Below, in pieces: positions 6,248 through 49,440 of a stretch of DNA of 64,000 bases. The DNA is from Candidatus Binataceae bacterium (lineage in GTDB: Bacteria > Desulfobacterota > Binatia > Binatales > Binataceae): positions 32,696-96,695 of the forward strand of contig DATKSL010000041.1 in the NCBI GenBank assembly GCA_035531675.1. The letters run 5' to 3'. A program made the position numbers and the translations under genes. Position 1 is the first letter of the stretch, and each line of letters opens with the position of its first letter. The notes under the pieces are model-generated. The model saw nothing but the letters and a program-made list of their open reading frames with translations. It was not told the origin of the DNA and ran no database searches.

Positions 6248-7162
6248 ATGGCATCGGAGAAAGTCAAAGTTGCAATCATCGGCTCGGGCAATATCGGCAC
6301 CGACCTGATGTTCAAGCTGCGCCGCAGCACGGTGCTCGAGCTGACCTGGATGGTCGGCGTGGTGCCCGATTCCGACGGGCTGCGCCGCGCCCGTGAGCTC
6401 GGCTACAAGACCACGCACAAGGGTATCGAAGACCTGAAGGACCATCTCGAGGACTTCGAGATGGCCTTCGACGCCACCACGGCGCACGCCCATTACAAGC
6501 ACGCCGAACTGCTCAAGCAGTGGGGCAAGATCGCAATCGATCTGACCCCGGCGGCGATCGGTCCCTACGTGGTGCCGGTGGTCAACCTCGATCAGTACCT
6601 CGACCATCAGAACGTCAACCTGGTGACCTGCGGCGGACAGGCGACGGTGCCGATGGTCTATGCGGTGTCGCGGGTGACGCCGGTCAAGTACGCCGAAATC
6701 GTCTCGACCGTGGCCAGCCGCTCGGCGGGTCCCGGCACGCGCCAGAATATCGACGAGTTTACCGAGACCACGGCGCGCGGACTCTCGGAAGTCGGCGGCG
6801 CCGCGCAGGGCAAGGCGATTATTATTCTCAACCCCGCCGACCCGCCGATCATCATGCGCAACACGGTTTACGTCAGCCTCGACAAGGACGCCGACCGCGA
6901 GGCGATCAAGGGCTCGATCGAGGAGATGGTGACCGAGGTGCAGCGTTACGTGCCCGGCTATCACCTGAAGTCGCCGCCGATCTTCGACGAGGATCGGGTG
7001 ATGATAATGCTCGAGGTCGAAGGGGCGGGCGATTACCTGCCCAAGTTTTCGGGCAACCTCGACATCATGACCTCGGCCGCGGTGCGCGTGGCCGAGGGCT
7101 TCGCCAGCCATCTCAAGACACGCAAAGGACGCCCTGAGCGGCGGGAGGAGAGCCGGGCATGA
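6248..7162 (+). CDS. mhpF: Acetaldehyde dehydrogenase (acetylating), DmpF/MhpF/BphJ family
   Basis: 304 aa. [23 protein letters not shown]... is the typical N-terminus of acetylating ALDH. An AAGGAG RBS precedes it, and the stop overlaps the aldolase start. Confidence 0.9.
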
Positions 7163-8211
7163 GTGCCAAGAAAATCTGGATTACCGATACCACGCTGCGC
7201 GACGGCGACCATGCGATGTCGCACAAGTACGAGGTCGACCAGGTGCGGCGTATCGCCCAGGCGCTCGATGAGGCCGGCGTGCCGGTCATCGAGGTCTCGC
7301 ACGGCGACGGGCTGGGCGGCTCGTCGATGCAATACGGCTTCTCGATCGAAGAGGAGGAGAAGTACCTGCGCGCCGCCGCCGAGGTTATCAAGCGCGGCCG
7401 GATGGCGTTCCTGCTGCTGCCGGGAATCGGCACCCGCCACGACCTCGAGCGGGCCGCCAAAATCGGCGCCAAGGTGGCGCGCGTCGCCACCCATTGCACC
7501 GAGGCCGACATCTCCGAACAGCACATCAAGATGGCCAAGGACCTCGGCCTCGACGTGCATAGCTTCCTGATGATGTCGCACATGACGTCGCCCGAAGCGC
7601 TGGCCGGGCAGGCCAAGCTGATGGAAAGCTACGGCGCCGACTGTATCTACGTGGTCGACTCCGCCGGCGCCCAGCTCGTCGACGAGGCGCGCCAGCGGGT
7701 GCGCGCGCTGCGCCATGCGCTCGAGCCCAAGACCGAGGTCGGCTTCCACGCGCACAACAACCTCGGCCTGGCGGTCGGCAACAGCCTGGTCGCGATCGAA
7801 GAAGGCGCCACCCGCATCGACGGCAGCGCCTGCGGACTCGGCGCCGGCGCGGGCAACACCCAGACCGAGGCGCTGGTCGCGGTGCTCGATCGGATGGGTA
7901 TCGAGACCGGCATCGATCTCTTCAAGATCATGGACGTGGCCGAGGAAGTGGTCTACCCGATAATGCGCCAGCGCCACGTGCCGCGCATCGATCGCGGCAG
8001 CCTGACGATCGGCTACGCCGGCGTCTACTCGACCTTCCTGCTGTTCGCGCAGCGGGCGGCCGAGAAGTTCGGCGTCGAGACGCGCGACATCCTGGTCGAG
8101 CTCGGCAAGCGCAAGATGGTCGGCGGCCAGGAAGACATGATTATCGACGTCGCGGTCGAGCTCGCGAACCAGGCCAAGAGCAAGCCCCGCCGCGCCGAAG
8201 CGCGCGCCTAG
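7159..8211 (+). CDS. mhpE: 4-hydroxy-2-oxovalerate aldolase, DmpG/MhpE/BphI family
   Basis: 350 aa. [56 protein letters not shown]... is the canonical HOA aldolase. It is translationally coupled to the ALDH. Confidence 0.9.
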
Positions 8212-8296
8212 GCGGCGCTGCGGGCCTGAAACTTCGCAACCCACGATGGGCGCCGGCAGCCCCGGCGCCCGTCATCCGCTTAGGGAGCGCCATTCC

Positions 8297-9169
8297 ATGT
8301 CAATCTGGACCGGCCTGATGGGCCACGGGGTCAAGCAGACGTTCTATGACGCCGGCGGCGTGCGCACGCGCGCGATCGAGGCTGGTTCCGGCCCGGTGCT
8401 GATCTTCCTGCACGGCACCGGCGGCCATGCCGAGGCTTACACGCGCAATATCGTCGAGCATGCGCGACACTTCCACGTCTATGCGGTCGACATGGTCGGG
8501 CATGGCTACTCGGCGATGCCTGACATCGCGTACCACTACGACGATTACGTGAAATGGCTGCACGACCTGCTCGACGCGATCGGCGCCCGCACGGCGATTA
8601 TCTCGGGCGAATCGCTGGGTGCGATGGTCGCGCAACTGTTCGCGATTCGTTATCCCGAGCGCGCCGAAAAAGTGGTGCTCAACACCGGCATCATGTGGCC
8701 GTCGGACGCCGCCGGGCGCAAGGAAGTAAACGACCTGCTCGAGCGCAGCCGCGCCGCCACCGGCGCGCTCACCCGCGAAACGGTGCGCAAGCGGCTGGAT
8801 TGGCTGATGTTCGAGCCGGCCAAGAGCGTGACCGACGAGCTGGTCGAGGTGCGCTATCAAATCTACACCCAGCCGGGACGCGGACCGGTAATCCGCAAGA
8901 TCGCCGAGGCCAGTATCAGCGGCCTGCTGGCGTTGGAGGCGGGCAAGGGGCTGTGCGATCCCGAGTTCCTGCGGCGCTGTCGATGCCCCGCGTTGCTGGT
9001 CTGGACGCGGCATAATCCGGGGCAATCGATCCCGGTCGCCGAGGCCGGCATGCAGCACATCCCCAACGGCCGCATGGTGATCATGGAGAACAGCGCGCAT
9101 TGGCCCCAATGGGAGGAGCCCGAGCTGTTCAACAAGCTGCATCTCGAGTTTCTGCGCGGCAACGGCTGA
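8297..9169 (+). CDS. Alpha/beta hydrolase, meta-cleavage product (2-hydroxy-6-oxo-dienoate) hydrolase, BphD/MhpC/HsaD-like
   Basis: The ORF track starts at 8246. The ATG at 8297 (MSIWTGL...) has a GGGAG RBS. Alpha/beta-hydrolase fold with GxSxG (GESLG). Context is within the meta-cleavage operon. Confidence 0.75.
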   Translation: MSIWTGLMGHGVKQTFYDAGGVRTRAIEAGSGPVLIFLHGTGGHAEAYTRNIVEHARHFHVYAVDMVGHGYSAMPDIAYHYDDYVKWLHDLLDAIGARTAIISGESLGAMVAQLFAIRYPERAEKVVLNTGIMWPSDAAGRKEVNDLLERSRAATGALTRETVRKRLDWLMFEPAKSVTDELVEVRYQIYTQPGRGPVIRKIAEASISGLLALEAGKGLCDPEFLRRCRCPALLVWTRHNPGQSIPVAEAGMQHIPNGRMVIMENSAHWPQWEEPELFNKLHLEFLRGNG

Positions 9170-9194
9170 GCGACCGCTTTCAGGAGAGACTGCC

Positions 9195-9989
9195 ATGGCA
9201 TCCACGATGAATTCAGCGCAAATCAACACGATCGCCAAACGGCTGATCGAGGCCGAAGACAAACGCGCGCCGATTGCGCCGTTGACCACCGAGTTTCCCG
9301 AGCTGGCGGTCGAGGACGCCTACGCAATCCAGCTGGCGGTGCTCGAAGTCAAGAAATCGCGCGGCGAAATGGTGACCGGCCGCAAGGCGGGGCTCACCAG
9401 CCAGGCGATCCAGAAACTGTTCGGCGTCAACGAGCCCGACTTCGGCCATCTGCTGGCGAGCATGATGGTCGAGAGCGGCGCCGCCATCGCGTCGTCGGAA
9501 GTGATACAGGCCAAGGCGGAACCGGAAATCGCGTTCGTGCTGGCGCAGGACCTGCGCGGACCGGGGGTGACCGCGCTCGATGTAGTCGGCGCGACGAAAT
9601 ACATCGTGCCGGTGCTGGAGATAATCGACAGCCGCATCGCGGACTGGAAAATCAAGCTGGGCGATACCATCGCCGACAACGCCTCGTGCGGCAAGGTGGT
9701 GATCGGCGGCCCGGCGCGGCCGGTCACCGGGGTGGACCTGCGATTGGTCGGCGTGGTGTTCGAGAAAAATGGCGAGGTGATCGCGACCGGCGCCGGCGCC
9801 GCGGCGCTCGGCAATCCCGCCATCGCGGTGGCCTGGCTCGCCAACAAGCTGGCCTCCTTCGATCAATATCTGCGCAAGGGCGAGCTGATTCTGCCCGGCT
9901 CGCTGACCTCGGCGTTCGACGCGAAGCCCGGCGACCATATCCGGGCCACCTTCGATCGGCTGGGCTCGGTCGGCGTGCGCTTCGTCTAA
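9195..9989 (+). CDS. mhpD: 2-keto-4-pentenoate (2-oxopent-4-enoate) hydratase, MhpD/BphH/HsaE family
   Basis: 264 aa of hydratase/decarboxylase (FAH-like) family sequence. An AGGAGA RBS precedes it. Confidence 0.85.
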   Translation: MASTMNSAQINTIAKRLIEAEDKRAPIAPLTTEFPELAVEDAYAIQLAVLEVKKSRGEMVTGRKAGLTSQAIQKLFGVNEPDFGHLLASMMVESGAAIASSEVIQAKAEPEIAFVLAQDLRGPGVTALDVVGATKYIVPVLEIIDSRIADWKIKLGDTIADNASCGKVVIGGPARPVTGVDLRLVGVVFEKNGEVIATGAGAAALGNPAIAVAWLANKLASFDQYLRKGELILPGSLTSAFDAKPGDHIRATFDRLGSVGVRFV

Positions 9990-10150
9990 TTCGTTGCGCA
10001 AAGATTTCACACTTATCGGGCGCGATCGCTCCCGCCGCGAGGCCGCTTCGCTGCGCGTTCGGCCCGTTGAGCGGTTAAGCAATAAAGGCTAAAATAGCAA
10101 GGAGAAGACATATTAAGGCTGATATAGCTAGCACAAGGAGCGCGCCCTCG

Positions 10151-10771
10151 ATGAGCGAGATCACCGTCACCATCCATAACTACCATGAGCGATTGCTGAG
10201 GGACTTGCGTGAGCAGAGCGCGATGTTCAACGCGGATCCCTCGGAAGAGAGCGGGAGCAAGCTGCTGGCTCTGCTGCATGACGATCTGATCCGCCACACC
10301 GCGGACGAGGAGCGCGACTTCTACCCGCTGATCGATCAGATAATCAAGGCGGAACCCGGTGGCGCGACCGCGAGCATGGTGATCGACCACGAGTTCATCG
10401 GCGAGTACGTGGACTGGATAGAGGCGGCGCTGCAGTCGCTGCGCAGCGCCACTGGCAGCCATCGCGAGCTTCTGCTAAGTCAGCTGCGACGCTACCTGGT
10501 GCAACTCGAGGCGGTCCTCAATCTGCACATGGAAAAAGAAGAACGCCTGTTTCTGCCGATGATCGAGCGGCATGTCTCGCTGGTGAATCAGCAGCGGATG
10601 CTGGCGGCGATGAACGGCACTGCGATGAACGGGTCGGACGGCGATCTGCCGGTTGACGGCAAGGCTGCCGCGGGCAAGAGCGCGCGCAAAAAAGCCCCCA
10701 GCGCAAGAGCGGTCCATAATGGCGAGGCCGCGCGTTCGGCGGGCGATAAGCATCACCAACCACGCCGATGA
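10151..10771 (+). CDS. Hemerythrin-like (HHE cation-binding) domain protein
   Basis: 206 aa with H/E-rich helical motifs (HNYHERLLRDL..., HTADEERDFYPLI..., HMEKEERLFLPMI) and a basic Lys/Ala-rich tail. An AAGGAG RBS precedes it. Confidence 0.55.
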   Translation: MSEITVTIHNYHERLLRDLREQSAMFNADPSEESGSKLLALLHDDLIRHTADEERDFYPLIDQIIKAEPGGATASMVIDHEFIGEYVDWIEAALQSLRSATGSHRELLLSQLRRYLVQLEAVLNLHMEKEERLFLPMIERHVSLVNQQRMLAAMNGTAMNGSDGDLPVDGKAAAGKSARKKAPSARAVHNGEAARSAGDKHHQPRR

Positions 10772-10813
10772 CCCGCGCGCACGCGGTCTCGGCCCCAGGG
10801 GCATCGTCTTTCC

Positions 10814-12136
10814 TTGATCGAATCTGACCCTGCCGAGACGCCGCCCGGCCATCGCGCCGCGCCGCACGCGCATACCGATCCCGATCTGCCGCGGCGCCGG
10901 CCATTTCGCACGCCGCTGAATTTCTTCGTTCTTGGAATCCTGTTCTTTGCCATGGGCCTGATGGCCGCGCCGTTCGTGATCGGCGAGGCGATCGAATTCT
11001 TCTACCAGCCGATGCTGCTGGCGCTGGTCCATAGCTTCACCCTGGGCTGGATCACGGCGACCATCATGGGCGTCATGTATCGCTACGTGCCGTCGTTGAC
11101 CCACACGCGCATCCGCTTTCCGCGGCTGGCGGCGCTGCAGTTCGCGCTCTACGTGATCGGCGTGCTCGGGATGGTCAGTCATTTCGCGAGCGGCGCATGG
11201 GTGGGGCTGTGGTGGTCGGCGATCGTGATGGTGCTGAGCGTGATCCTGTTCGCGGTTAACCTGGTGCCGTGCCTGGCGCCGCATTTCGGCACGGGAATCG
11301 CCGAGACCGGGATGCTGCTGGCGATTGGATTTCTGCTGGCGGCGGCGAGCTGGGGGCTGCTGCTCGGGCTCGACAAGAGCTTCGGCTTTCTCGGCGGCGA
11401 CCTGTTGAGCAATCTCGGCGGGCACGTGGCGCTGGCGGCCGTCGGATGGGTGAGCCTGGCGATTTGCGCGGTCTCCTACCGGATGATCCCGGCCTTTACG
11501 CTGCCCTCAGTAACCCTGCCGCGAGCCGCGTTGTGGCAACTGGCGGCGCTGGCCTTGGGCGCGGCGGTGTTGGCTGCGATTCTGATTGCGCGGGGCCGTG
11601 GCGCGATGCTCGGTGGTGCGCTGATCGCCGCGGCGCTGATCGGATACATCGCGATCATGATCCGGATGGTCGCCGCGCATCGCGTGCCGATCGATTGGAC
11701 CGCGCGTCACGCGCTGTGCGGCATCGGCTGGCTGCTGATCGCATGCGCGCTCGGACTGCTGCTCGATTGGGCGGGCTCCGACACCGTCATCGGCAATCGC
11801 GCGGCCGGCGCGTTCGCCGTCACCGGCCTGCTGGGATGGGCCGGAAACTTCATCATCGGGATGTCCTACGCCCTGTTTCCGGGGCTGGTCGCACGGGTCA
11901 GGTCCGAGGCCGGATGGGCGGCGATTCCTGCCGCGCGGCTCTCGATAGCGGGGCCGCGCCTTTGGATCTGGCTGGTCTTCAATCTTGGCGTCGCGATCAC
12001 TGCCGCGGGACTTGCCGCCGGCAACGCCTGGTTGGCGCGGATCGGCGCGACCGCCTGCGCGGCTGCCGCGGTTCCATATGCGGCGGCCGCGCTGGCGACG
12101 CTCGTGCGTGCCTATCGCGAAGGCGAGGGCGGGTAG
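10814..12136 (+). CDS. Polytopic integral membrane protein of unknown function (possibly NnrS-like)
   Basis: 440 aa with roughly 12 predicted TM helices and several conserved His. The track start is a TTG; the alternative ATG at about 10952 lies inside the first TM helix. It is immediately downstream of the hemerythrin-like gene. Confidence 0.45.
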   Translation: MIESDPAETPPGHRAAPHAHTDPDLPRRRPFRTPLNFFVLGILFFAMGLMAAPFVIGEAIEFFYQPMLLALVHSFTLGWITATIMGVMYRYVPSLTHTRIRFPRLAALQFALYVIGVLGMVSHFASGAWVGLWWSAIVMVLSVILFAVNLVPCLAPHFGTGIAETGMLLAIGFLLAAASWGLLLGLDKSFGFLGGDLLSNLGGHVALAAVGWVSLAICAVSYRMIPAFTLPSVTLPRAALWQLAALALGAAVLAAILIARGRGAMLGGALIAAALIGYIAIMIRMVAAHRVPIDWTARHALCGIGWLLIACALGLLLDWAGSDTVIGNRAAGAFAVTGLLGWAGNFIIGMSYALFPGLVARVRSEAGWAAIPAARLSIAGPRLWIWLVFNLGVAITAAGLAAGNAWLARIGATACAAAAVPYAAAALATLVRAYREGEGG

Positions 12137-12139
12137 CTT

Positions 12140-13042
12140 CTAGAGCGAGCCGCGGTCCATGCCCATCGCGGGTTCGACGAACTCGTGGCCCCAGATGTCC
12201 TTGGTGTAGTACTCGGTCTGATGGGTTGCGTTGCGCGAGCCGGAGCCGTACTCGAACAGCCATCCCGACGGATTGCGCATGTAGAACGACAGCATCCGGT
12301 CGTTGGAGTGCTTGCCGAGCGTAATCGCGATCGGAATCTTGCGCCGCTTGACCAGATCGTAGGTCATGCCGACGTCGTCGATCTCGGTAACTTCGATCAT
12401 CAGGTGATTGATGCGCTTCTCCATCGGACCGAGCCCGAAAGCGATCGAATGGTCGCGCTCGTTGCAATGCATGAAGTACGGCATCACCTTGTGGCCGTCG
12501 CCGACCGTGAGCTTGTACTCGACGGTCCCGCGCATGCCGAGCACCCGGCTGTAGAATTGCTGCGAGGCGTCGACGTTGTCGGCGCGGATGATGGTATGGC
12601 CGATGCCGCCTGCGCCGGTGGCGAATTTGCCGAACATCCGGCGCCCCGGATAGAACGGCATCGAAGCTTCGATATGCGGGCCGTGGAAAATCTCGAGCGG
12701 ATTGCCCGACGGATCTTCGAGCTTGATCAGGCCGAGCACGTGGCGCTCGGTGCACTCGTCCTCGGAGCCGACCTTGAACGGTACTTCCATATGCTTGAGA
12801 TGGTCTTCCATCTCTTTCAGTTCATCGGGACCAGCCACGCGCAGGCCGAGATAGGCCAGATCGTCCTTGCCGTTGATATGCAAGGCGATGCGATGGTGCC
12901 ATTCGTCCATCCGCAGATAGGCGCGGTCGCCTTCGCCCTCATCGAGCCACTCCATGCCGACCACCTGGGTGGCGTATTCCTTCCAGGCCTTGGGGTCGCT
13001 GATGTAAACGCCGAGATAGCCGAACTCCGTGATCTGGGCCAT
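12140..13042 (-). CDS. Type I extradiol ring-cleavage dioxygenase (2,3-dihydroxybiphenyl 1,2-dioxygenase / HsaC / NahC-like, VOC superfamily)
   Basis: MAQITEFGYLGVYISDPKAWKEYA... two-domain catechol 2,3-dioxygenase family protein with a GGAGGGA RBS. The track ORF extends to 13120, but the internal ATG at 13042 fits the family N-terminus. Confidence 0.8.
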   Translation of the reverse strand: MAQITEFGYLGVYISDPKAWKEYATQVVGMEWLDEGEGDRAYLRMDEWHHRIALHINGKDDLAYLGLRVAGPDELKEMEDHLKHMEVPFKVGSEDECTERHVLGLIKLEDPSGNPLEIFHGPHIEASMPFYPGRRMFGKFATGAGGIGHTIIRADNVDASQQFYSRVLGMRGTVEYKLTVGDGHKVMPYFMHCNERDHSIAFGLGPMEKRINHLMIEVTEIDDVGMTYDLVKRRKIPIAITLGKHSNDRMLSFYMRNPSGWLFEYGSGSRNATHQTEYYTKDIWGHEFVEPAMGMDRGSL

Positions 13043-13124
13043 ATACCGTCCCTCCGCTAGTCTCATTATCTCCCATGAAAGCGGCTGTCTATCAAGCCGG
13101 CTCGCACAAACCGGGCTCAAGCGA

Positions 13125-14177
13125 TCATAAATCAGGACCGACCATCAGTTCATGCATCGCCGGATCGGACATAAACCGCTCCGACAACGGGCACAGCAGC
13201 TCGACATACAGCCCGGCCAGTTTCTCGCGCGTGTCGGCGTAGCAATAGTAGACGTCGGAGCCCTGGCCGTCCTGGATTATCGGCATCCCTTCGGCTTCGA
13301 GGCGCTTGGTTATCAGGCCCAGTTCTTCGGGACCGCACAGGGTCGTCATGATGTGATTCAGTCCCTCGCCCTGCTTATCCAGCATGTCCTGGTAAATCGT
13401 GGGACCGTAAATCTGCTCGACGATTTCGATGCCGAAGTCGTTCTTGCGTCCGAGTGAGAGCCGGAAACGGGTGTCGGCGCTCTTGCCGAAGTAATGCGTA
13501 TCCTGGCTGCTGACGCCGGTCTGATTGTCAAAATCGAACCACTGCTCGAAGCCCAGCAGACGCTGGTAGTTATCGCGCATCGAGAGGCGTTTGTTCCTGG
13601 TCAGCACGCACGCATGATAGATTTTTTCGCTCGGACATCCCGCCGCACCCGCCACCTTGCTGTCGATAGTAATAACCTCGTCGGGCTTGAGCCGCGGATC
13701 CGATTGCCAATCCGGCCGCAGCGGACACAGAACTTCATAGGTGGTGCCGAGATACGAGGTCGAGTCCAGATAGTAATACTCCAGCGTATCGGTCACGGTG
13801 GCGCTCTGACTGACGGTGATACCCTCGCTTTCGAGCCACGGCCGGAGCTGCCTGAATTCCGCCGGCGAGCAGATGGTGGGAAACAGATGATGCATGCCTT
13901 CGCCGTGCGTTTCGAGGAATTCGCCGTAGACGCTGTCGCCTGAAACCGGCTGGCAGAGCTCGAAGGCGATTTTGCCCCGGGCGCCGAGCACCGAAATAAA
14001 CGAATGCTTGACCGGCTTGCCGTGCAGGGTCGCATCGGGCATCCGCGACGAATCCTGGCGGCGAACCTCCCAGCGCTCGATGCCGAAGAAGCGCGAGAAC
14101 TGTTCGATGTATCGCCGATAGTCGCTGACGACCACGCCGATATGATGATGGCGCTCGACGGGCAGCAGATTTCCCAT
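13125..14177 (-). CDS. Two-domain VOC (glyoxalase/extradiol dioxygenase-like) family protein
   Basis: 350 aa with an internally duplicated architecture (HHIGVVV... / ...NHIMTTLCGP...). A GAGGAG RBS precedes it. It sits between the Rieske beta subunit and the extradiol dioxygenase. Confidence 0.5.
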   Translation of the reverse strand: MGNLLPVERHHHIGVVVSDYRRYIEQFSRFFGIERWEVRRQDSSRMPDATLHGKPVKHSFISVLGARGKIAFELCQPVSGDSVYGEFLETHGEGMHHLFPTICSPAEFRQLRPWLESEGITVSQSATVTDTLEYYYLDSTSYLGTTYEVLCPLRPDWQSDPRLKPDEVITIDSKVAGAAGCPSEKIYHACVLTRNKRLSMRDNYQRLLGFEQWFDFDNQTGVSSQDTHYFGKSADTRFRLSLGRKNDFGIEIVEQIYGPTIYQDMLDKQGEGLNHIMTTLCGPEELGLITKRLEAEGMPIIQDGQGSDVYYCYADTREKLAGLYVELLCPLSERFMSDPAMHELMVGPDL

Positions 14178-14238
14178 GGTGATTCTCCTCGTGGTCAGAA
14201 CGGCACGGCGCCGCGAGCATTGCGCGGCGTCGCGGCCG

Positions 14239-14745
14239 CTAAAAGAATACCGAGATCGATTCGATAACGTTGTGATCCAGGATTATCAGCCGCTCCAGCA
14301 ATCGCCAGCCGCCGGCGGTCTTGCGCCAGGTGTCCTCGCGCGTGCCGAAGAAAGTTCGTTCGTCGCGATCGCCGGCGCTGCGGAACACGATGAAATTCGA
14401 CGCCACCCGCGCGGTGTCGTCCTTCGCGTCCATCGCCAGCACCCTGACATTGGCGACGATATGGCGGGTGCGGGAGGACGGCTCTTCGGCGTGAGCCCAG
14501 CCGGTCCGTATCCGTCTGACGCGGGCGGCGAGGTCGGCTTTGCGATCATCGAAATGGGCCACCAGCTCGGGCCGGGCGAGATTTTCGACGCCGCGCGGCA
14601 GCGTCGCCCGGACCGGCGCGAAGTAGCGCAGCGCGTCGTCGAGCATCTCGAGCCATTCCTCGAAGCGATCGGAATCCAGCAGCGCCGCTTCGCGGAACAA
14701 CAACTCCTCGAAGAGGCGGCGATGCTCGTCCAACGAGGCCGTCAT
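14239..14745 (-). CDS. Aromatic ring-hydroxylating dioxygenase beta (small) subunit
   Basis: MTASLDEHRRLFEELLFREAALLDSDRFEEWLEM... NTF2/SnoaL-like beta subunit. The ATG overlaps the alpha-subunit stop (ATGA coupling). The track ORF extends 5' to 14937. Confidence 0.75.
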   Translation of the reverse strand: MTASLDEHRRLFEELLFREAALLDSDRFEEWLEMLDDALRYFAPVRATLPRGVENLARPELVAHFDDRKADLAARVRRIRTGWAHAEEPSSRTRHIVANVRVLAMDAKDDTARVASNFIVFRSAGDRDERTFFGTREDTWRKTAGGWRLLERLIILDHNVIESISVFF

Positions 14746-16037
14746 CGTGGCACCTCGCCGCGCTCCATCAGCTCGCGCCAGCGTTCGTAAAAGCCGAACA
14801 CGCCGATCTCGGTGTTCGGCGGATGGGTAAGGCCGGGACGATCGGGACGGGTCTGCCCGCGGCCCGCGCCCATCCCGTAGTAAAGCGGGAAGCGACGGCG
14901 ATAAAAACCGCGCATCGATTGGCTCGCGTCCATCCACATCTCGCCGTCATCCTGCTCGAAGATGCCGCTCGGAGAAAAGGTGCGGTTCTGCTGATCGCGC
15001 GCAAAGTCGCGGACCGTCTGCGGCGCTTCCTTGTCGACCATCGTCAGCGACCAGATCTCATGTTCCAGCGGACTGCGCGGATGATTCACGCGCACGCTGG
15101 CGAAGCCCAGCGTTACGATGATCGACAGGTTAGGAAAGATGTTGGCCACGTAGGTGATGCCGTCGTTGACCAGGTTCGCCTGCTCCGGAGTGAGCCGCCG
15201 CTTTGCAGCCGCGCGGACCGCCGCCTCATAGGACACCGCTTCGGCCGGATAATTCCTGGTGTAGCCGAGCGTCAGAATCATGAAACCGTGACCGTTGCCG
15301 CATTTGATCTCGAGGTCGCGGCGGTCCGGCGCGGTGCCGCGAAATTCGCTCACGTCGAGGTAACCGCTCTCGAGCACGCTGCGATGCAGAAAGTCGGGAT
15401 GATAATTATCCCCGCATTGCTGCTCGGAGTTGACCTTCCAGTTGCCGCGAACCGTCCATCGATGGACCCCGGGCAGCGCCACCGGACCGCCTTCGGTGCG
15501 ATCGAAGATCACGTCCAGGTACCATTTCGCATTGCCGAGGTACGAGGTCAGGCTCTCGGCTTGCGGATCGAAGTTGGCAAAGATCAAGTTGCGATAAGTT
15601 TCGACCCTCGGCACCTCCAGCAATCCCCATTCGCTGCGGTCGAAGTTCTCGTCGTAGGCTTCCTTGAATCGCGGCACCCCCACCAGCTTGCCAGCGATAT
15701 CATAGGTCCAGCCGTGATATGGGCAGGTGAAGCTGCGGGTGTTGCCGTAGTCGATGCGGCATACGCGGGAGGCGCGATGGCGGCAGGAGTTGACCAGCAC
15801 GTGAATCTCGCCTTGCGTGTCGCGGGTGACGATTACGCGCTCCTCGCCCATCGAATTCGTAATGAAGTCGCCGGGCTCCGGAATCTGCGATTCGCATCCC
15901 ACGAACAGCCAACAGTGGCCGAAGACGCGCTCCTGTTCGAGCTCGTAGAGCGACGGCTCGACAAAGACCCGCGGGCTTACGGTCTTGCGATCCAGGTCAA
16001 CCAGCTCGCTGCAATCGAATGAAGTAGCGCTCTTCAT
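14742..16037 (-). CDS. Rieske [2Fe-2S] aromatic ring-hydroxylating dioxygenase alpha (large) subunit
   Basis: 431 aa. The Rieske motif reads CRHRASRVC...CPYHGW, followed by a catalytic non-heme iron domain. A GGGAG RBS precedes it. Confidence 0.85.
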   Translation of the reverse strand: MKSATSFDCSELVDLDRKTVSPRVFVEPSLYELEQERVFGHCWLFVGCESQIPEPGDFITNSMGEERVIVTRDTQGEIHVLVNSCRHRASRVCRIDYGNTRSFTCPYHGWTYDIAGKLVGVPRFKEAYDENFDRSEWGLLEVPRVETYRNLIFANFDPQAESLTSYLGNAKWYLDVIFDRTEGGPVALPGVHRWTVRGNWKVNSEQQCGDNYHPDFLHRSVLESGYLDVSEFRGTAPDRRDLEIKCGNGHGFMILTLGYTRNYPAEAVSYEAAVRAAAKRRLTPEQANLVNDGITYVANIFPNLSIIVTLGFASVRVNHPRSPLEHEIWSLTMVDKEAPQTVRDFARDQQNRTFSPSGIFEQDDGEMWMDASQSMRGFYRRRFPLYYGMGAGRGQTRPDRPGLTHPPNTEIGVFGFYERWRELMERGEVPR

Positions 16038-16229
16038 ACCCTTGAGTCACTCCCAAAAACGACGCTCGGGAATCGGACGGAATCGACTACCTGCCGCGTC
16101 TGTAAGCCAAGTGGCCGCTCATTACAAGGGCGACGACGGGTGTGCAGTTGCCGGGCGCGGCGGCGTGGCGTGATCGCATAGTCAGCAACGGCGAAATTGG
16201 GTTAAGATATTCGGCGCGGAGGAGTGAGA

Positions 16230-17470: not shown

Positions 17471-18076
17471 CTACGACTGGCGGGAAGATTCGCTGATATA
17501 TTCCTCGAGAAACTCGATCCGATCGTTGCCCCAGAAGATTTGATCGTCGACCAGGAAGACCGGCACGCCGAACACGCCGCGCGCCTTCGCCGCCTCGGTC
17601 TCCTGTTCGTATTGCCCGACGATCGCCGGCTCATCGATGCCGCGCAGCAGCTTCTCGGGCGACAGGCCCGCGGCCCGCGCGATCTCATTGAGGGTCTCGT
17701 CGGTGTCGGGGTTCTTGCCATGTCCCCACACCGCATCGTAGGCCGCGTGCAGGTACTCCATCTCGCGTTCCTGCGAGCGCGCCCATAGAAAGCCCCGATT
17801 CGCGCGCGCCGTCTTGAGATCGGCCGGCATCGTGAGCGGCACCTCGTAGCGCCGCGCCCATCGATGAAGGTCGGCGATCAGCGCCTTGAACTTGTTCGGG
17901 ATCTGGCGGTTGAAGGGACCGTTATTGCCGGCGGCGAATCTGACCGCGAGCAGATCCACCGGATGGTAGACAAACGAGGCCTGGCCCTTGAAGCGTTTTG
18001 CCACCTCGGGGAGATGGACCGACGCCAGGTAGGCGTAGGGGCTCATCAGATCGAAATAGAAATCGACGGTCTTCAT
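17471..18076 (-). CDS. 2-hydroxychromene-2-carboxylate isomerase family protein (NahD-like; DsbA-like/GST-kappa fold), paralog 1
   Basis: 201 aa. MKTVDFYFDLMSPYAYLAS... and ...GVFGVPVFLVDDQIFWGNDRIEFLEEY are both hallmark HCCA isomerase motifs. Confidence 0.75.
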   Translation of the reverse strand: MKTVDFYFDLMSPYAYLASVHLPEVAKRFKGQASFVYHPVDLLAVRFAAGNNGPFNRQIPNKFKALIADLHRWARRYEVPLTMPADLKTARANRGFLWARSQEREMEYLHAAYDAVWGHGKNPDTDETLNEIARAAGLSPEKLLRGIDEPAIVGQYEQETEAAKARGVFGVPVFLVDDQIFWGNDRIEFLEEYISESSRQS

Positions 18077-23039: not shown

Positions 23040-23660
23040 CTAGGCGCGCGCGCCCTTCGACGCGTCGCGCAGCAAGTCCTCGACCATGTCGAGCCGGTCG
23101 TTGCCCCAGAACAGCTCGTCGTTGACGATCACGCTGGGCACGCCGAACACGCCGCGTTCGGAAGCCTCGGCGATCTCGCGCTCGGCCTCCTTGCGGATCT
23201 CGTCGGAATCGACCGCCTTCAAGAAGTCCGCGGCCGGCAATCCGGCGACCGCCGCCAGCTCGCGCAGCAGGGCGTCGTTCATCTCGGCGGCTTCGCCCCA
23301 GACCTTGCGATAGGCGGCGCTCAGGTAGGCAAGCTCTTTTTGGCGGCGTCGGGCGACCAGGAAGCCGCGGCCGATGCGCGGCGGAATAGTAGGGTCCATG
23401 TGCGAGACGCTCTCCGGCGAGACGAGCGGCACCCCGTAGCGGCGCGCCCAGCGGGCAAGGTCGGCGCGCAGGTAGCGATACTTGGGCGGCAGCGCATGAT
23501 TGGGTCGCCCGGTGGTTCCGGCGTTGCGCTTGATAACCTGGTTATCCACCACATGGTAGACCACGGTCGCGCCGTGGCGGGCGGCGAGATCGCCGATCCG
23601 CAGGCTGGCCAGATAAGAGAAGGGGCTGAAGAAATCAAAATAGAAATGAATTTGCGTCAT
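23040..23660 (-). CDS. 2-hydroxychromene-2-carboxylate isomerase family protein (NahD-like), paralog 2
   Basis: MTQIHFYFDFFSPFSYLAS...GVFGVPSVIVNDELFWGNDRLDMVEDL. The track ORF extends to 23903, but the internal ATG at 23660 matches the family N-terminus. Confidence 0.75.
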   Translation of the reverse strand: MTQIHFYFDFFSPFSYLASLRIGDLAARHGATVVYHVVDNQVIKRNAGTTGRPNHALPPKYRYLRADLARWARRYGVPLVSPESVSHMDPTIPPRIGRGFLVARRRQKELAYLSAAYRKVWGEAAEMNDALLRELAAVAGLPAADFLKAVDSDEIRKEAEREIAEASERGVFGVPSVIVNDELFWGNDRLDMVEDLLRDASKGARA

Positions 23661-23718: not shown

Positions 23719-24339
23719 TTACAGATGCACCGCCGCCCCGGGATCGCGCAGGTACTCTTCGAGGAAGTCGATGCGGTCGTTGCCCCAGAATAACTGATCG
23801 CCGACGACAAAAGTCGGCACGCCAAAGACTCCGCGGGCCTGCGCTTCGAGATTTTCACGCGCGTACTCGGCGATGGTTTCGGGGGCGTCGGCAGCGGCTG
23901 CAAGCTCGCGCGGATCGAGGCCCGCTTTCGCGGCCACGTCTTTCAGCGTCGCCTCGCTCGGCTCGCGCCGGGCCTGCCATAACGCGGCAAAGGCGGCCGT
24001 GAGGTAGGCCTCGCCGGCGCCGCGGCGCGTGGCATACAGGAAGCCCCGATTGAGGCGCGCGGCGGCCTTGAGATCGACATGGGCGAGGGTTTCAGGAAAG
24101 GCCAGCGGAGCCTGGTAGCGTGCGGCCCAGCGCGCCAGGTCGGTTTTCAGATAGCGCAACTTGCGGGGCAGCAGATGGCTGGCCGGACGAGTATTGCCGA
24201 TGGCCTGCTTGGCGGCCTCGAGGTCGACTACGTGGAAGACGATCTCGGCGCCGAACTCGGCGCGCAGGCGCGGAAGCCGAAAGGTTGCGAGATAGCTGTA
24301 GGGGCTGAGGAAATCGAAATAGAAATCGACTTTGGCCAT
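23719..24339 (-). CDS. 2-hydroxychromene-2-carboxylate isomerase family protein (NahD-like), paralog 3
   Basis: 206 aa: MAKVDFYFDFLSPYSYLAT...GVFGVPTFVVGDQLFWGNDRIDFLEEYL. Confidence 0.75.
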   Translation of the reverse strand: MAKVDFYFDFLSPYSYLATFRLPRLRAEFGAEIVFHVVDLEAAKQAIGNTRPASHLLPRKLRYLKTDLARWAARYQAPLAFPETLAHVDLKAAARLNRGFLYATRRGAGEAYLTAAFAALWQARREPSEATLKDVAAKAGLDPRELAAAADAPETIAEYARENLEAQARGVFGVPTFVVGDQLFWGNDRIDFLEEYLRDPGAAVHL

Positions 24340-30774: not shown

Positions 30775-30868
30775 CCCTCCCCCGAAACAGTGGGGGAGGG
30801 AGTCAGAAGCGTGCGCGCATCGCGCGGCGGACCACCATCCTTGAAACGCGATCGTCATTATGAAAAGT
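30775..30868. repeat. Direct repeat copy 1 (about 95 bp) containing the hairpin CCCTCCCCC-GAAACAGT-GGGGGAGGG
   Basis: A 46-bp core identical to copy 2 (CGCGGCGGACCACCATCCTTGAAACGCGATCGTCATTATGAAAAGT) plus a diverged upstream arm. The extended similarity continues to about 30890 (AGCGTGCGCGCC). Confidence 0.8.
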
Positions 30869-30928: not shown

Positions 30929-31543
30929 ATGGCGCCGAGAATAAAATTAATCGAAGACCTCAACAACCCACCGCCCGAGGTCGGCAAGGTCCTCGCCGCG
31001 TACATGGAACGGACCGGAGGGCAATACGCGAAGATCGCCCTCGACATGGACCATCCATGGCGCCAGAAGGGGACCGACGACCATCATCAATGGGCGTTAC
31101 AGATAGCCAACGCTTACGGACTCAGCCCGCGGCTGCTGGAACTGAAACTCCAGTACGACTGGTACCTGGTGCGCGAGGGGCTGATTGCTCAGCGTTCGCA
31201 GCAACTGGTCGAGATGTTAGGCACGGTGATCGCCGGGGCCCTGCAATGCCCGTATTGAACTGCCTGGCATTCAGCCGCGTCGCGGTTTGCAGGAGCAGGT
31301 GCGGAGCAAGTCGAAAAACTCAAGGATTACGATCAGCACCGGGCGGCATTTTCGGAGCTTGAGCTCGCGGTTTTCGATTACGGCCGGAAGATTGCGCTGT
31401 GGGCCTACAAGGTAACGGACGAGGAAATCGAACACTTAAAGCAATGGTTTAATGATGCGGAATTGGTCGAGCTGACCGAACTGGCCTGCCATTTCACGGC
31501 GCTCGCCAAATTTTTCCCATCGCTTGACGTCGAGATTTGGTGA
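30929..31543 (+). CDS. AhpD/carboxymuconolactone-decarboxylase (CMD) family peroxidase-related protein with in-frame UGA; putative selenoprotein (Sec at codon 110)
   Basis: The track ORF 30929..31258 stops at TGA (31256-31258), but the same frame continues for 94 more codons to a TGA at 31541-31543. The TGA sits in ...GALQ-C-P-Y-[TGA]-T-A-W-H..., i.e. in the position of the second Cys of the CxxC...H AhpD active-site motif. An RBS GAGGAGGA lies upstream. Combined length is 204 aa, typical for the family. Confidence 0.6.
31263..31293 (+). promoter_or_regulatory. Candidate bacterial SECIS hairpin immediately downstream of the in-frame UGA
   Basis: The sequence CCUG.GCA...AGCCGCG-UC(G)-CGCGGUU...UGCAGG can fold as an interrupted stem of roughly 12 bp. 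The upper stem starts about 15 nt after the UGA and the apical loop contains GUC. This was folded by eye only. Confidence 0.3.
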
Positions 31544-31596
31544 GCAAGCTGACCGGCCTCCTGGGCCTCAAAAAAAGAGGCGTCGAGAGTATCTCA

Positions 31597-31734
31597 CTTC
31601 CGCCCCCTCAGTTTTGGGGGAGGGTTGCGATGCGGCTCGCGGATGTTTGACTCCCTCCCCCTGTGTTTTGGGGGAGGGTTGCGATACGGCTCGCGGATGT
31701 TTGACTCCCTCCCCCACTGTTTTGGGGGAGGGTT
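31597..31734. repeat. 54-bp tandem repeat (about 2.6 copies), each unit carrying the palindrome CCCTCCCCC-N8-GGGGGAGGG
   Basis: Units at 31597-31650, 31651-31704 and 31705-31734 (partial). Unit consensus is CTCCCTCCCCCNNNGTTTTGGGGGAGGGTTGCGATRCGGCTCGCGGATGTTTGA. The small track ORFs here (31524..31760 +, 31568..31819 -, 31594..31836 -, 31625..31864 +) are repeat artefacts. Confidence 0.85.
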
Positions 31735-31922
31735 GGGGTGGGGGTCGAAGACTATTCTGACTGTCTGTGAGAACCGTCTCGATTTGAATCCGAATCTGCT
31801 CGATCGAAAGCTCGACCAATCACCAAAGTCGGCCACGCCGGAAGCATCGGCGCAAAAAGATTAGGACGAGGAAGCGCCGCAGAAAAAGCCCCCGGCGCTT
31901 CCTCGCTCGACCCTCACCCCAG

Positions 31923-32018
31923 CCCTCCCCCGAAACTGAGGGGGGGAGTCAGCAGCGCGCACGTGTTCATCGCGCGGCGGACCACCATCCTTGAAACGCG
32001 ATCGTCATTATGAAAAGT
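31923..32018. repeat. Direct repeat copy 2 (about 96 bp), ending 17 bp upstream of tRNA-Arg
   Basis: Same core as copy 1. The extended similarity (AGCGTGCGCC at 32031-32040) runs into the first 5 nt of the tRNA gene. Confidence 0.8.
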
Positions 32019-32035: not shown

Positions 32036-32112
32036 GCGCCGTTAGCTCAGCGGATTAGAGCGGCAGACTACGGATCTGTAGGTCGGGGGTTCAAATCCCT
32101 CACGGCGCACCA
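32036..32112 (+). tRNA. tRNA-Arg (anticodon ACG)
   Basis: 77 nt. Acceptor stem GCGCCGU/ACGGCGC, D-arm GCUC/GAGC, anticodon stem GCAGA/UCUGU with loop CU-ACG-GA, 5-nt variable loop, T-arm GGGGG-UUCAAAU-CCCUC, and 3' ACCA encoded. Confidence 0.9.
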
Positions 32113-47518: not shown

Positions 47519-48541
47519 GTGATCGACGATAGTTTTCCGCCCGTTACGGCGGCCTCGAACCGCTCGCGCGGCCTCCATCGGTGGGCGCTGTTGGCCGCCA
47601 TCATGACCTTTATCCTGATCTTTGTGGGCGGCCTTGTCACGACCACGGGCTCGGGCCTGTCGGTACCCGATTGGCCGCTGGCCTTCGGCAAGCTGGTGCC
47701 GCCACACTGGGTCGGCGGTATCCGCTTCGAGTACAGCCATCGGGTGGCGGCGGGGACGGTCACGATTCTGACCTTCTCGCTGGCCGTCTGGGCCTGGATG
47801 GCTGAGGCGCGGCGCTGGGTCAGGAACCTGGCCCTGGCGGCCTGCGGATTAGTAATCGCGCAGGCGCTGCTCGGCGCGATGAACGTGCTGTTCCGGTTGC
47901 CGCTGCCGGTGACGGTCGCCCACGCCGCCATCGCACCCGCGTTTTTCTGCCTGATGGTGGGACTCGCGATGTTCACCAATCCGAGCTGGGATGCGATGCT
48001 GCCGGCACGTACCGCCGACCGCGCGCGCCCGACGCTCAGGACTCTCACCGTGCTCACCGTCGCCGCCGTCTACCTGCAGATAATTATTGGCGCGTTGATG
48101 CGGAACATGGGCGCGGGGCTGGCGATTCCCGATTTTCCGCTGAACTATGGACACCTGGTGCCGCCCGGCTGGAGCGCTCCAATCGCGGTGAATTTCGCGC
48201 ATCGATGCGGCGCGCTGGTGGTCACGATTCTGGTGGTGTGGACCGTCGCCCGCATCGCCCGGCGCCATCGCGATGAGCCGCGCCTGATGCGGCCCGCGAT
48301 CGGCCTGCTGACCCTGCTGGCGATACAAATCACGCTCGGGGCGCTGACTATCTGGACCCGCCGCGCGATGCTTCCGACCACCGCTCACGTGGCGGTCGGC
48401 GCGGGCGTGCTGGCGACCGCGTTCTTCCTGTCGATTCGGGTCGCCCGCCTGACGCGCGTTGCCGATGCGGCCCAGGCGCCGGCGGCACAGCCTGACTATG
48501 CGCGCGACCGCACGGTCGCCGGCCGCGGGGTGGCATCATGA
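47519..48541 (+). CDS. ctaA: Heme A synthase CtaA (COX15 family); start uncertain
   Basis: 8 TM helices with conserved His pairs. The track ORF starts at 47357, only 39 bp from the divergent ligase start, and its first about 50 codons have low GC3. I propose the GTG at 47519 (341 aa) as the start. Confidence 0.65.
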   Translation: MIDDSFPPVTAASNRSRGLHRWALLAAIMTFILIFVGGLVTTTGSGLSVPDWPLAFGKLVPPHWVGGIRFEYSHRVAAGTVTILTFSLAVWAWMAEARRWVRNLALAACGLVIAQALLGAMNVLFRLPLPVTVAHAAIAPAFFCLMVGLAMFTNPSWDAMLPARTADRARPTLRTLTVLTVAAVYLQIIIGALMRNMGAGLAIPDFPLNYGHLVPPGWSAPIAVNFAHRCGALVVTILVVWTVARIARRHRDEPRLMRPAIGLLTLLAIQITLGALTIWTRRAMLPTTAHVAVGAGVLATAFFLSIRVARLTRVADAAQAPAAQPDYARDRTVAGRGVAS

Positions 48542-49440
48542 GCGCCGAAGCGGCAGCGGTCGCGACCTCGATGGGCGGCGCGCGGCGCCGGCTGGCGGAT
48601 TATTTCGCGCTCACCAAGCCGCGCGTGGTTTCGATGGTCCTGGTGACGGCCTTCGCCGGCTATTATCTCGGCGCCGGCGGCGCGATGAACCCGATGCTGG
48701 CGCTGAACCTGTTGATTGGCACTGCGTTCGCGGCGGGCGGCACGCTGGCGCTCAATCAGTACTTCGAGCGCGACCTCGATGCGCTGATGGAACGGACGCG
48801 GCGCCGGCCGCTGCCCGCAGCGCGTTTGCGTCCAATCGAAGGGCTGCTGTTCGGCGTGCTCACGACGGTCGTCGGTCTGTTCTGGCTGATAGTCACGGTC
48901 AACTGGATGTCGGCCGCAGTGATCGCCGCCATCACGGTGCTCTATCTCGGCGCCTACACGCCGCTCAAGCGCGTCTCGTGGGCCTGCAACATTATCGGCG
49001 CGGTGCCGGGCGCGCTGCCGCCGGTGGCGGGCTGGGTGGCGGCGCGATCGACCATCGGGGCCGAACCGATCCTGCTGTTCGCGATCATGTATTTCTGGCA
49101 GCTCCCCCATACGCTGGGGATCGCGCGGCTCTACCGGCGCGACTACGAGGCCGCCGGAATCCACCTTTGCCCGCCCGATGGACCGCGCGGACTGTTCATC
49201 AACGCGCTGATCGTCACCGACTGCGTGATGCTGGTGGCGGTGAGCATGCTGCCGGCGCTGATGGGCTTCGCGGGGCGAATTTACCTGGCCGTCGCGATCG
49301 TGCTGGGCGTCGGGATGCTGGCGTGCGGCTACGGCCTGATTCGCACTCCCGACCGCGCCGCCGCGACGCGCCGCGTCATCATGGCATCGCTGGTCTACCT
49401 GCCGGTGGTCCTGCTGGTGCTGGTGATCGATCGGATCTGA
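48538..49440 (+). CDS. ctaB: Protoheme IX farnesyltransferase (heme O synthase) CtaB/CyoE
   Basis: 300 aa UbiA-family prenyltransferase, overlapping the ctaA stop. Confidence 0.85.
   Translation: MSAEAAAVATSMGGARRRLADYFALTKPRVVSMVLVTAFAGYYLGAGGAMNPMLALNLLIGTAFAAGGTLALNQYFERDLDALMERTRRRPLPAARLRPIEGLLFGVLTTVVGLFWLIVTVNWMSAAVIAAITVLYLGAYTPLKRVSWACNIIGAVPGALPPVAGWVAARSTIGAEPILLFAIMYFWQLPHTLGIARLYRRDYEAAGIHLCPPDGPRGLFINALIVTDCVMLVAVSMLPALMGFAGRIYLAVAIVLGVGMLACGYGLIRTPDRAAATRRVIMASLVYLPVVLLVLVIDRI

Follow-up and report, generated by a model that had tools for sequence, protein, structure and literature searches.

We analysed a 64,000-nt stretch of DNA from an uncultured soil bacterium, Candidatus Binataceae (assembly GCA_035531675.1, contig DATKSL010000041.1, positions 32,696 to 96,695 of the forward strand; hereafter the window), with a focus on a small redox-enzyme gene of the AhpD/carboxymuconolactone decarboxylase (CMD) superfamily that contains an in-frame TGA and very likely encodes a selenoprotein. 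The gene is a single unit of 204 codons on the plus strand, running from the ATG at 30929 to the TGA at 31541–31543. Its internal TGA (31256–31258) is codon 110, is preceded by ...A-L-Q-C-P-Y and is followed in the same frame by 94 more open codons. The original prediction had described an open reading frame (ORF) of 109 amino acids ended by this TGA, 94 codons beyond it and a joined product of 204 residues, with C-P-Y-TGA-T-A-W-H at the CxxC-x3-His position; both the frame and the motif at the internal stop were confirmed in the sequence. The features of the gene are as follows.

30929–31543, plus strand: probable complete selenoprotein gene, 204 codons and a TGA terminator, with a predicted AhpD/CMD fold and the redox centre C107-P-Y-U110 (U, selenocysteine).
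31211–31270, plus strand: active-site segment with E95 (31211–31213), C107 (31247–31249), Y109, U110 and H114 (31268–31270).
31256–31258, plus strand: in-frame UGA, codon 110, presumed to encode selenocysteine (Sec); the column is an invariant Cys in 18 homologues, and the TGA is kept across the Sec lineages.
31260–31298, plus strand: candidate bacterial selenocysteine insertion sequence (SECIS), nt 5–43 counting the U of the UGA as 1, with a minimum free energy (MFE) of −17.7 kcal/mol.

In the public record, the gene appears as GenBank entry HUY20518.1, a 109-residue "hypothetical protein VMV15_14990" of a Candidatus Binataceae metagenome-assembled genome, flanked by PhoR (HUY20517) and QueA (HUY20519), which is the truncation that had been expected of automated annotation. 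Since at least six contigs, drawn from at least six metagenome samples, carry the identical gene with its internal TGA, this TGA is no sequencing error. Additional disabling lesions, which would mark a pseudogene, were looked for in the window gene and none was found. TGA serves as an ordinary terminator in the source organism, ending both the gene itself and phoR just upstream.

With the joined 204-residue product as query against 5.8 billion proteins, 18 relatives were obtained at 55–62% identity, nearly all of 203–204 residues and including Amycolatopsis and Mycolicibacter proteins. As anticipated, the alignment of the readthrough product placed a Cys opposite the TGA in 18/18 full-length homologues, where this column is invariant within C-P-Y-C-(I/T)-A-W-H-S-A-A-S-R-F. 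No truncated orthologues were returned by this full-length search; two metagenome scans, with peptide patterns and with a TGA-specific DNA pattern, gave no matches, and a genome scan found three actinobacterial Cys forms and nothing else. The full-length members all fall within one 50%-identity cluster and make up a small orthologous group, in which the N-terminal half has conserved motifs of its own (DHPWR.KGT, SPRLLEL, DWY).

To place this group, its profile was compared with the PDB, and 10 AhpD-core sequences (among them 2oyo, 3c1l, 6k40, 2pfx and PA0269) were matched at E = 9e-6 to 1e-3, with the CxxC-x3-H aligned. An AlphaFold2 model, predicted with X at position 110, was all-helical with a mean local confidence (pLDDT) of 94.2 and a predicted template-modelling score (pTM) of 0.90. 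It superposed on 3c1l, 2oyo, 2pfx and 6k40 over ~200 columns with template-modelling (TM) scores of 0.67–0.77, and the top 35 Foldseek matches were all AhpD/CMD-family chains (TM up to 0.77). Profile matches, predicted fold and the relay residues described below thus agree with the full-length AhpD/CMD-type product proposed before. Scores against the curated models were all below cutoff. For the Pfam CMD family (PF02627), to which 13 of the 18 homologues are assigned in existing records, the window protein reached 20 bits, just short of the gathering score of 23; for TIGR01926 it reached 37.3 bits and other family members 42–55 versus 81.8; and for NF053654 (GroundWater_YciW, YciW-related (seleno)protein) it reached 44.4 bits and other members 36–46 versus 310. 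Matches to NF041238 (AhpD_rel_CFYUT; 14.7 bits, family up to 20, versus 175) and NF041047 (GSU3128 family; 14.6 bits, family up to 30, versus 110) covered only the local motif region of the window protein. Judged from these matches, the protein is an uncurated subfamily of the AhpD/CMD superfamily, related to but outside TIGR01926, and because it lies below the cutoffs of every curated family, we regard it as a new subfamily of a known kind of selenoprotein.

The catalytic relay Glu...Cys-x-x-Cys-x3-His is present in the window protein as E95, C107, U110 and H114, with spacings of 12, 3 and 4 residues. Conservation of E95, C107, C110 and H114 reaches at least 90% over 35 close and distant relatives, even in those with ~25% identity. 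In Mycobacterium tuberculosis AhpD (MtAhpD), the relay consists of Glu118, Cys130, Cys133 and His137 (PMC3141380), and Cys133, exposed at the base of the cleft, attacks Cys61 of AhpC, while Cys130 is partly buried (PMC6626918). Sec had been suggested to replace the resolving Cys, which proved incorrect, as the TGA corresponds to the exposed attacking Cys133 and not to the resolving Cys130 (PMC6626918). By this correspondence, Sec would occupy the attacking position. As a general rule, Sec replaces a nucleophilic Cys, and the attacking position of U110 fits this rule. The 204-residue product would accordingly be read as an AhpD-fold thiol/selenol oxidoreductase, in which the C107-P-Y-U110 pair may be backed by E95 and H114. 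With Sec at the exposed attacking position, the enzyme would cycle between a selenol/thiol and a selenenyl-sulfide state, and we infer that its electrons would reduce either an oxidised partner of the peroxiredoxin type or, directly, a small oxidised substrate, for instance a hydroperoxide. No ahpC or other peroxiredoxin gene adjoins the target gene.

Truncated orthologues, as fragments of split genes, surfaced in two further searches, a sensitive one of 1.84 billion cluster representatives and one with a query limited to the N-terminal 109 residues. Five TGA-bearing lineages were identified, namely the window with L005, L012, L014–L016, L017, and L018/L019, and all have the TGA at the same column, within C-D-Y-TGA-T-S-W-H, C-P-Y-TGA-T-A-W-H or C-P-Y-TGA-L-E-W-H. 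Exactly 94 open codons follow the TGA in each lineage, ending in ...L-D-(V/L)-(E/Q)-(I/V)-W. Amino acid identities were 57–75% among the Sec forms and 48–58% between Sec and Cys forms, and a neighbour-joining tree separated the six Sec-form sequences, as one clade, from all 20 Cys forms. The window and L018 are the Binataceae lineages that carry the gene; the DNA ligase of L018 clusters at ≥90% identity with a Candidatus Binatus protein. One further candidate, P0172 of L013, was considered as a post-TGA fragment and rejected, being a Cys form (C-G-S-C-V-P-Y-H) cut by the contig end.

A sister AhpD-like family also contains a TGA-split member, L020 (524–1120, GCA_964589675.1), with C-K-L-TGA-V-P-F-H, which has been called as two proteins of 103 and 94 residues and has DUF1326 and PpoB2 genes behind it. 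Behind the Sec-form gene of L012 (1459–2100) there is likewise a DUF1326 gene, a hint that AhpD-like and DUF1326 genes pair recurrently.

For the bacterial SECIS (bSECIS), the published model requires an apical loop of 3–9 nt, an upper stem of 4–16 bp, a distance of 16–37 nt from the UGA to the loop and an MFE ≤ −7.5 kcal/mol, with a G in the first two loop positions, usually as G-G or G-U (PMC13188914). The window hairpin, which is the MFE structure of the 48 nt starting at the UGA, lies within all of these constraints. Its apical part (AGCCGC-GUC-GCGGUU) starts 14 nt past the UGA, in line with the ~15 nt and the GUC loop predicted earlier, and consists of a 6-bp stem (31273–31278 / 31282–31287; A18–C23 / G27–U32) and the loop G-U-C (31279–31281; G24-U25-C26), which starts 20 nt after the UGA. 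In the other Sec lineages, a loop of G-U-C, G-G-C or C-G-U-C-U was found at the same place (−13.9 to −16.5 kcal/mol), and the SECIS-like hairpin was the unconstrained MFE structure in four of the five lineages. The apical GCCGC-GUC-GCGG was found in Sec forms and not in Cys forms: in the three Cys-form genes the apical stem is absent, while the lower stem is already there.

The strongest evidence for the element came from synonymous sites and pointed to the same segment. Among the 67 codon columns that are amino acid-invariant in the five Sec lineages, nine have the same codon in all five, and four of these (CAU, GCC, GCG, CGG) fall among the five invariant columns of codons 111–122, compared with 5/62 elsewhere (Fisher p = 7.7e-4). 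In the Cys forms, identical codons numbered 0/10 within codons 111–122 and 35/122 elsewhere. An unbiased sliding window of eight codons likewise placed the nucleotide-identity maximum of the Sec-form gene at codons 112–119 (0.89 versus a mean of 0.665). The conservation of synonymous sites over the hairpin is thus confined to the Sec forms and shows a constraint at the RNA level. We accordingly take the hairpin as a candidate SECIS that is well supported but unproven. Because the region is too invariant for covariation to be informative, the case for it is based on geometry and synonymous-site conservation.

From the gene, its relatives and this hairpin, we consider it highly likely that the UGA at codon 110 is decoded as Sec and that this is a genuine selenoprotein gene. 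When the ribosome reaches the UGA, the hairpin starting 2 nt downstream would present its G-U-C apical loop, and this loop would recruit SelB-GTP-Sec-tRNA(Sec), so that Sec would be inserted in place of termination. That the inserted residue is Sec, and that SelB is involved, we infer from the site and the hairpin geometry. A naive search of the window for further TGA-split ORFs was also made and discarded as support: the 156 pairs obtained were essentially all high-GC noise or adjacent genes, and because a redox motif was found in the target only, the scan provides no independent evidence of Sec use.

Several observations weigh against Sec decoding. No selA, selB, selD or tRNA-Sec was found in the ~66 kb inspected (the window and ~1 kb on each side) of the 270-kb contig, where the only tRNA is a tRNA-Arg, nor was any Sec machinery present in the other fetched loci, and no published report of Sec use in Binatota/Binatia was found. 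With respect to the hairpin, its stability by itself was no higher than that of shuffled sequence (z = +0.66), so that its significance comes from the comparative data only. Covariation was weak, with one compensatory pair, because the stem hardly varies; paired cells amounted to 84%, versus 40–53% for slid registers, and 85/500 shuffles did equally well. RNAalifold favoured an overlapping alternative hairpin (columns 7–13 / 19–25), in L018 a competing hairpin was more stable by 3.4 kcal/mol, and Rfam returned no SECIS match at the gathering score or at E up to 10. Among the neighbours of the Cys and Sec loci, no conserved partner gene was found; they differ from locus to locus and include hemerythrin, GST, YdhR, a second CMD protein, DUF1326, TetR and PhoR. 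Finally, at codon 4, an Arg codon in the others, the L018 copy (L018 9929–10540; also L019) carries an additional TGA, and this is followed by GTT, which is not a start codon. The same copy has Gly as its last residue, in place of the invariant Trp, and an IS1595-family transposase gene 230 nt away, while its pN/pS (the ratio of nonsynonymous to synonymous differences per site) against the window is still 0.19–0.26; it may be decaying or using a later start.

The best-surviving alternative is that the UGA is read through without Sec, by near-cognate insertion of Trp or Cys, by a suppressor tRNA or by a hairpin-stimulated leaky stop, giving a Cys- or Trp-containing full-length protein as well as the 109-residue product. 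Purifying selection downstream of the UGA, presented below, shows continued translation and not which residue is inserted, stable hairpins behind stop codons are able to promote readthrough in general, and no Sec machinery was found in the ~66 kb of the source contig inspected. Yet the site is the catalytic Cys of the CxxC, precisely where Sec sits in the known CxxU AhpD-like families (PMC13188914), and a Trp at this catalytic position would abolish the redox centre. Moreover, the hairpin fits the SelB-type bSECIS geometry, with its G-U or G-G loop 20 nt after the UGA, TGA is an ordinary terminator for the organism (in the target gene and phoR), and no suppressor tRNA was present in any fetched locus. 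We thus judge readthrough without Sec to be improbable.

Sequence divergence was used to evaluate the constraint on both halves of the gene. Strain L005 (JGI 3300054963) is ~95% identical to the window in nucleotides over 10.7 kb, and between the two, 16/615 gene positions differ, 10 before and six after the TGA, all 16 of them synonymous. The six downstream changes lie in codons 127, 137, 148, 149, 153 and 175 and include one first-position change (CGG to AGG); that 6/6 are synonymous has P ~3e-4, given the transition/transversion-specific synonymous fractions of this sequence, and the same window/L005 changes would alter 5–6 residues in the other two frames. In all Sec-clade pairs, pN/pS was 0.17–0.50 downstream and 0.22–0.49 upstream of the TGA, similar to the 0.06–0.29 of the three Cys-form genes, with synonymous sites near saturation in the Sec clade (pS 0.5–0.9). 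This pattern indicates that both halves are under purifying selection, with a constraint of the translation type.

The selection data bear directly on the possibility that the gene is a pseudogene, in which a single TGC/TGT-to-TGA mutation inactivated a Cys-type AhpD-like gene and either a 109-residue stub or nothing is made. One base change suffices to turn Cys into TGA, every annotated full-length homologue has Cys, the Prokaryotic Genome Annotation Pipeline (PGAP) called a 109-residue hypothetical protein, and both the lack of Sec machinery in the DNA inspected and the second nonsense codon of the L018 copy would agree with decay. A dead gene is nevertheless hard to reconcile with a TGA kept at the same column in five lineages at 57–75% amino acid identity, with 94 downstream codons free of frameshifts and other stops, and with an internal stop that is always TGA while the true terminators vary among TGA, TAG and TAA. 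Nor does it account for a downstream pN/pS that matches the upstream value and resembles that of the Cys forms, or for six out of six synonymous downstream changes between two strains. Furthermore, reinitiation can neither make the downstream half nor explain its constraint, as the window gene lacks any in-frame ATG, GTG or TTG ahead of codon 179. Given clade retention, downstream constraint and the missing reinitiation start, the ribosome must pass the UGA and a nonsense pseudogene is practically excluded, which makes this explanation very improbable. Least probable of all is a split gene, whose 109-residue N-terminal piece would associate with a separately initiated C-terminal piece: such C-terminal pieces have been called in L005 (57 residues), L012 and L018 (77 residues) and L014 (61 residues), but their starts are at differing, non-homologous positions, codons 111–178 are under purifying selection in spite of the lack of a start before codon 179, and a split here would delete the catalytic residue.

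With Sec decoding as the preferred reading, the 109-residue public annotation is very probably wrong, and the gene should be read as a 204-residue selenoprotein. The result is mainly one of annotation, in that HUY20518.1 and the other metagenomic lineages carry the gene as one or two "hypothetical protein" fragments. It also defines a Sec clade inside a small AhpD-like subfamily without a curated NCBIfam model, and such a model could be built from these sequences. The split between the Cys and Sec clades represents a compact example of a SECIS laid over pre-existing codons. On the indirect evidence from the gene itself, Binataceae (phylum Binatota) are probably Sec users.

The gene lies in the repeat-flanked position beside a tRNA that had been noted before, within a unit of 1150 bp that has a copy of a ~95-nt direct repeat at either end, 51 nt of which are identical between the copies. 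The features of this region are as follows.

30775–30868, plus strand: upstream copy of the ~95-nt direct repeat, a repetitive extragenic palindrome (REP)-like hairpin followed by the 51 nt identical to the copy before tRNA-Arg.
31583–31744, plus strand: three tandem 54-nt units, located after the gene and before the downstream repeat, each with a REP-like hairpin of the CCCTCCCCC-N8-GGGGGAGGG type.
31923–32018, plus strand: downstream copy of the ~95-nt direct repeat, ending 17 nt before tRNA-Arg.
32036–32112, plus strand: tRNA-Arg (anticodon ACG), a neighbour outside the Sec system.

The CCCTCCCCC-N8-GGGGGAGGG hairpin motif was found nowhere else in the window. Both copies of the ~95-nt repeat are also present in L005, and the tandem 54-nt array is strain-variable, because it is largely missing there. 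This arrangement suggests that a duplicate of the tRNA-Arg upstream region precedes the gene. A scan of the locus for sigma-70 promoters and terminators gave nothing useful and no sigma-70 consensus promoter. The 5′ leader was also considered as a degenerate copy of tRNA-Arg, which was rejected, as only 9 nt match and 88/2000 shuffles score as well. Low G+C of the gene was likewise rejected as a sign of horizontal transfer, since actinobacterial Cys-form genes show the same deficit relative to their flanks; being a family-wide trait that Cys forms share, it lends no support to a recent cassette acquisition. A second strain-variable insertion at the same tRNA was observed in L005 (10860–11755), where ~0.9 kb of extra DNA, absent from the window, lies between tRNA-Arg and queA and holds a 183-residue ORF without a Pfam match on record.

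A more speculative reading, which we regard as possible but doubtful, is that the Sec-form gene is a small, horizontally mobile, SECIS-carrying unit that spreads among aerobic soil and groundwater bacteria, Binataceae included, and that in the source genome would have landed 5′ of tRNA-Arg by duplicating the ~95-nt upstream (probably promoter) region and would now be driven by the copy of the tRNA promoter. If that were true, Binatota would be Sec users that had gone unrecognised until now, and at least one of their selenoproteins would have been gained as a cassette.

Elsewhere in the window, the gene content looks aerobic to judge from its genes for ring degradation by meta-cleavage, Rieske dioxygenases and heme A synthesis. 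An aromatic-ring degradation cluster (~6250–16040) comprises an acetaldehyde dehydrogenase and an HMGL-like aldolase of the DmpF/DmpG type, a hydrolase, an FAA hydrolase, two glyoxalase/extradiol dioxygenase genes, and the alpha and beta subunits of a Rieske ring-hydroxylating dioxygenase, and the heme A synthesis genes CtaA/CtaB lie at ~48400–49440. Three DsbA-family genes (17471–18076, 23040–23660 and 23719–24339; 201–206 residues) were found within 7 kb on the minus strand, two of them in tandem, and all are full-length Cys forms with no sign of Sec. DsbA-like selenoproteins exist elsewhere.

Compared with known systems, the closest are the CxxU AhpD-type selenoproteins, which were first described from the Sargasso Sea and Global Ocean Sampling (GOS) metagenomes and comprise AhpD-like (TIGR01926-type), CMD-like (PF02627), AhpD-related (NF041238, C-F-Y-U-T) and distant AhpD (NF041047) families, all of them CxxU (PMC13188914). 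The original prediction was therefore right that AhpD-like selenoproteins are already known as a family. The window protein shares with them the AhpD/CMD fold, Sec at the second Cys of the CxxC followed by x3-His, a candidate SECIS within the coding sequence directly after the UGA, and a majority of Cys homologues; its C-P-Y-U-T nearly equals the C-F-Y-U-T of NF041238. It differs from them in lying below every curated cutoff, in its own N-terminal half, and in its occurrence in Binataceae, where no published selenoprotein was found.

M. tuberculosis AhpD (Rv2429), an adaptor that re-reduces AhpC, has a Glu-(11)-Cys-x-x-Cys-x3-His spacing identical to that of the target, with Cys133 at the position of the TGA. 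In contrast, it is absent from the sequence and fold matches of the target, and its model TIGR00777 (ahpD) was not matched. Between the redox residues it has His132, where the target has Tyr, as does Pseudomonas aeruginosa PA0269. The target further differs from it in having Sec for Cys and no adjacent ahpC or peroxiredoxin gene. The best full-length matches are the ~190-residue "peroxidase-related" AhpD-core proteins (Mlr4105 = 3c1l, 2oyo, 2pfx, 2prr and Deinococcus radiodurans AhpD 6k40), whose CxxC lies mid-chain on a helix equivalent to that of the target, whereas their identity to it is 14–19%, all are Cys forms, and most are without demonstrated activity. The gene thus adds a new branch to the established class of CxxU selenoproteins and no new class of mechanism.

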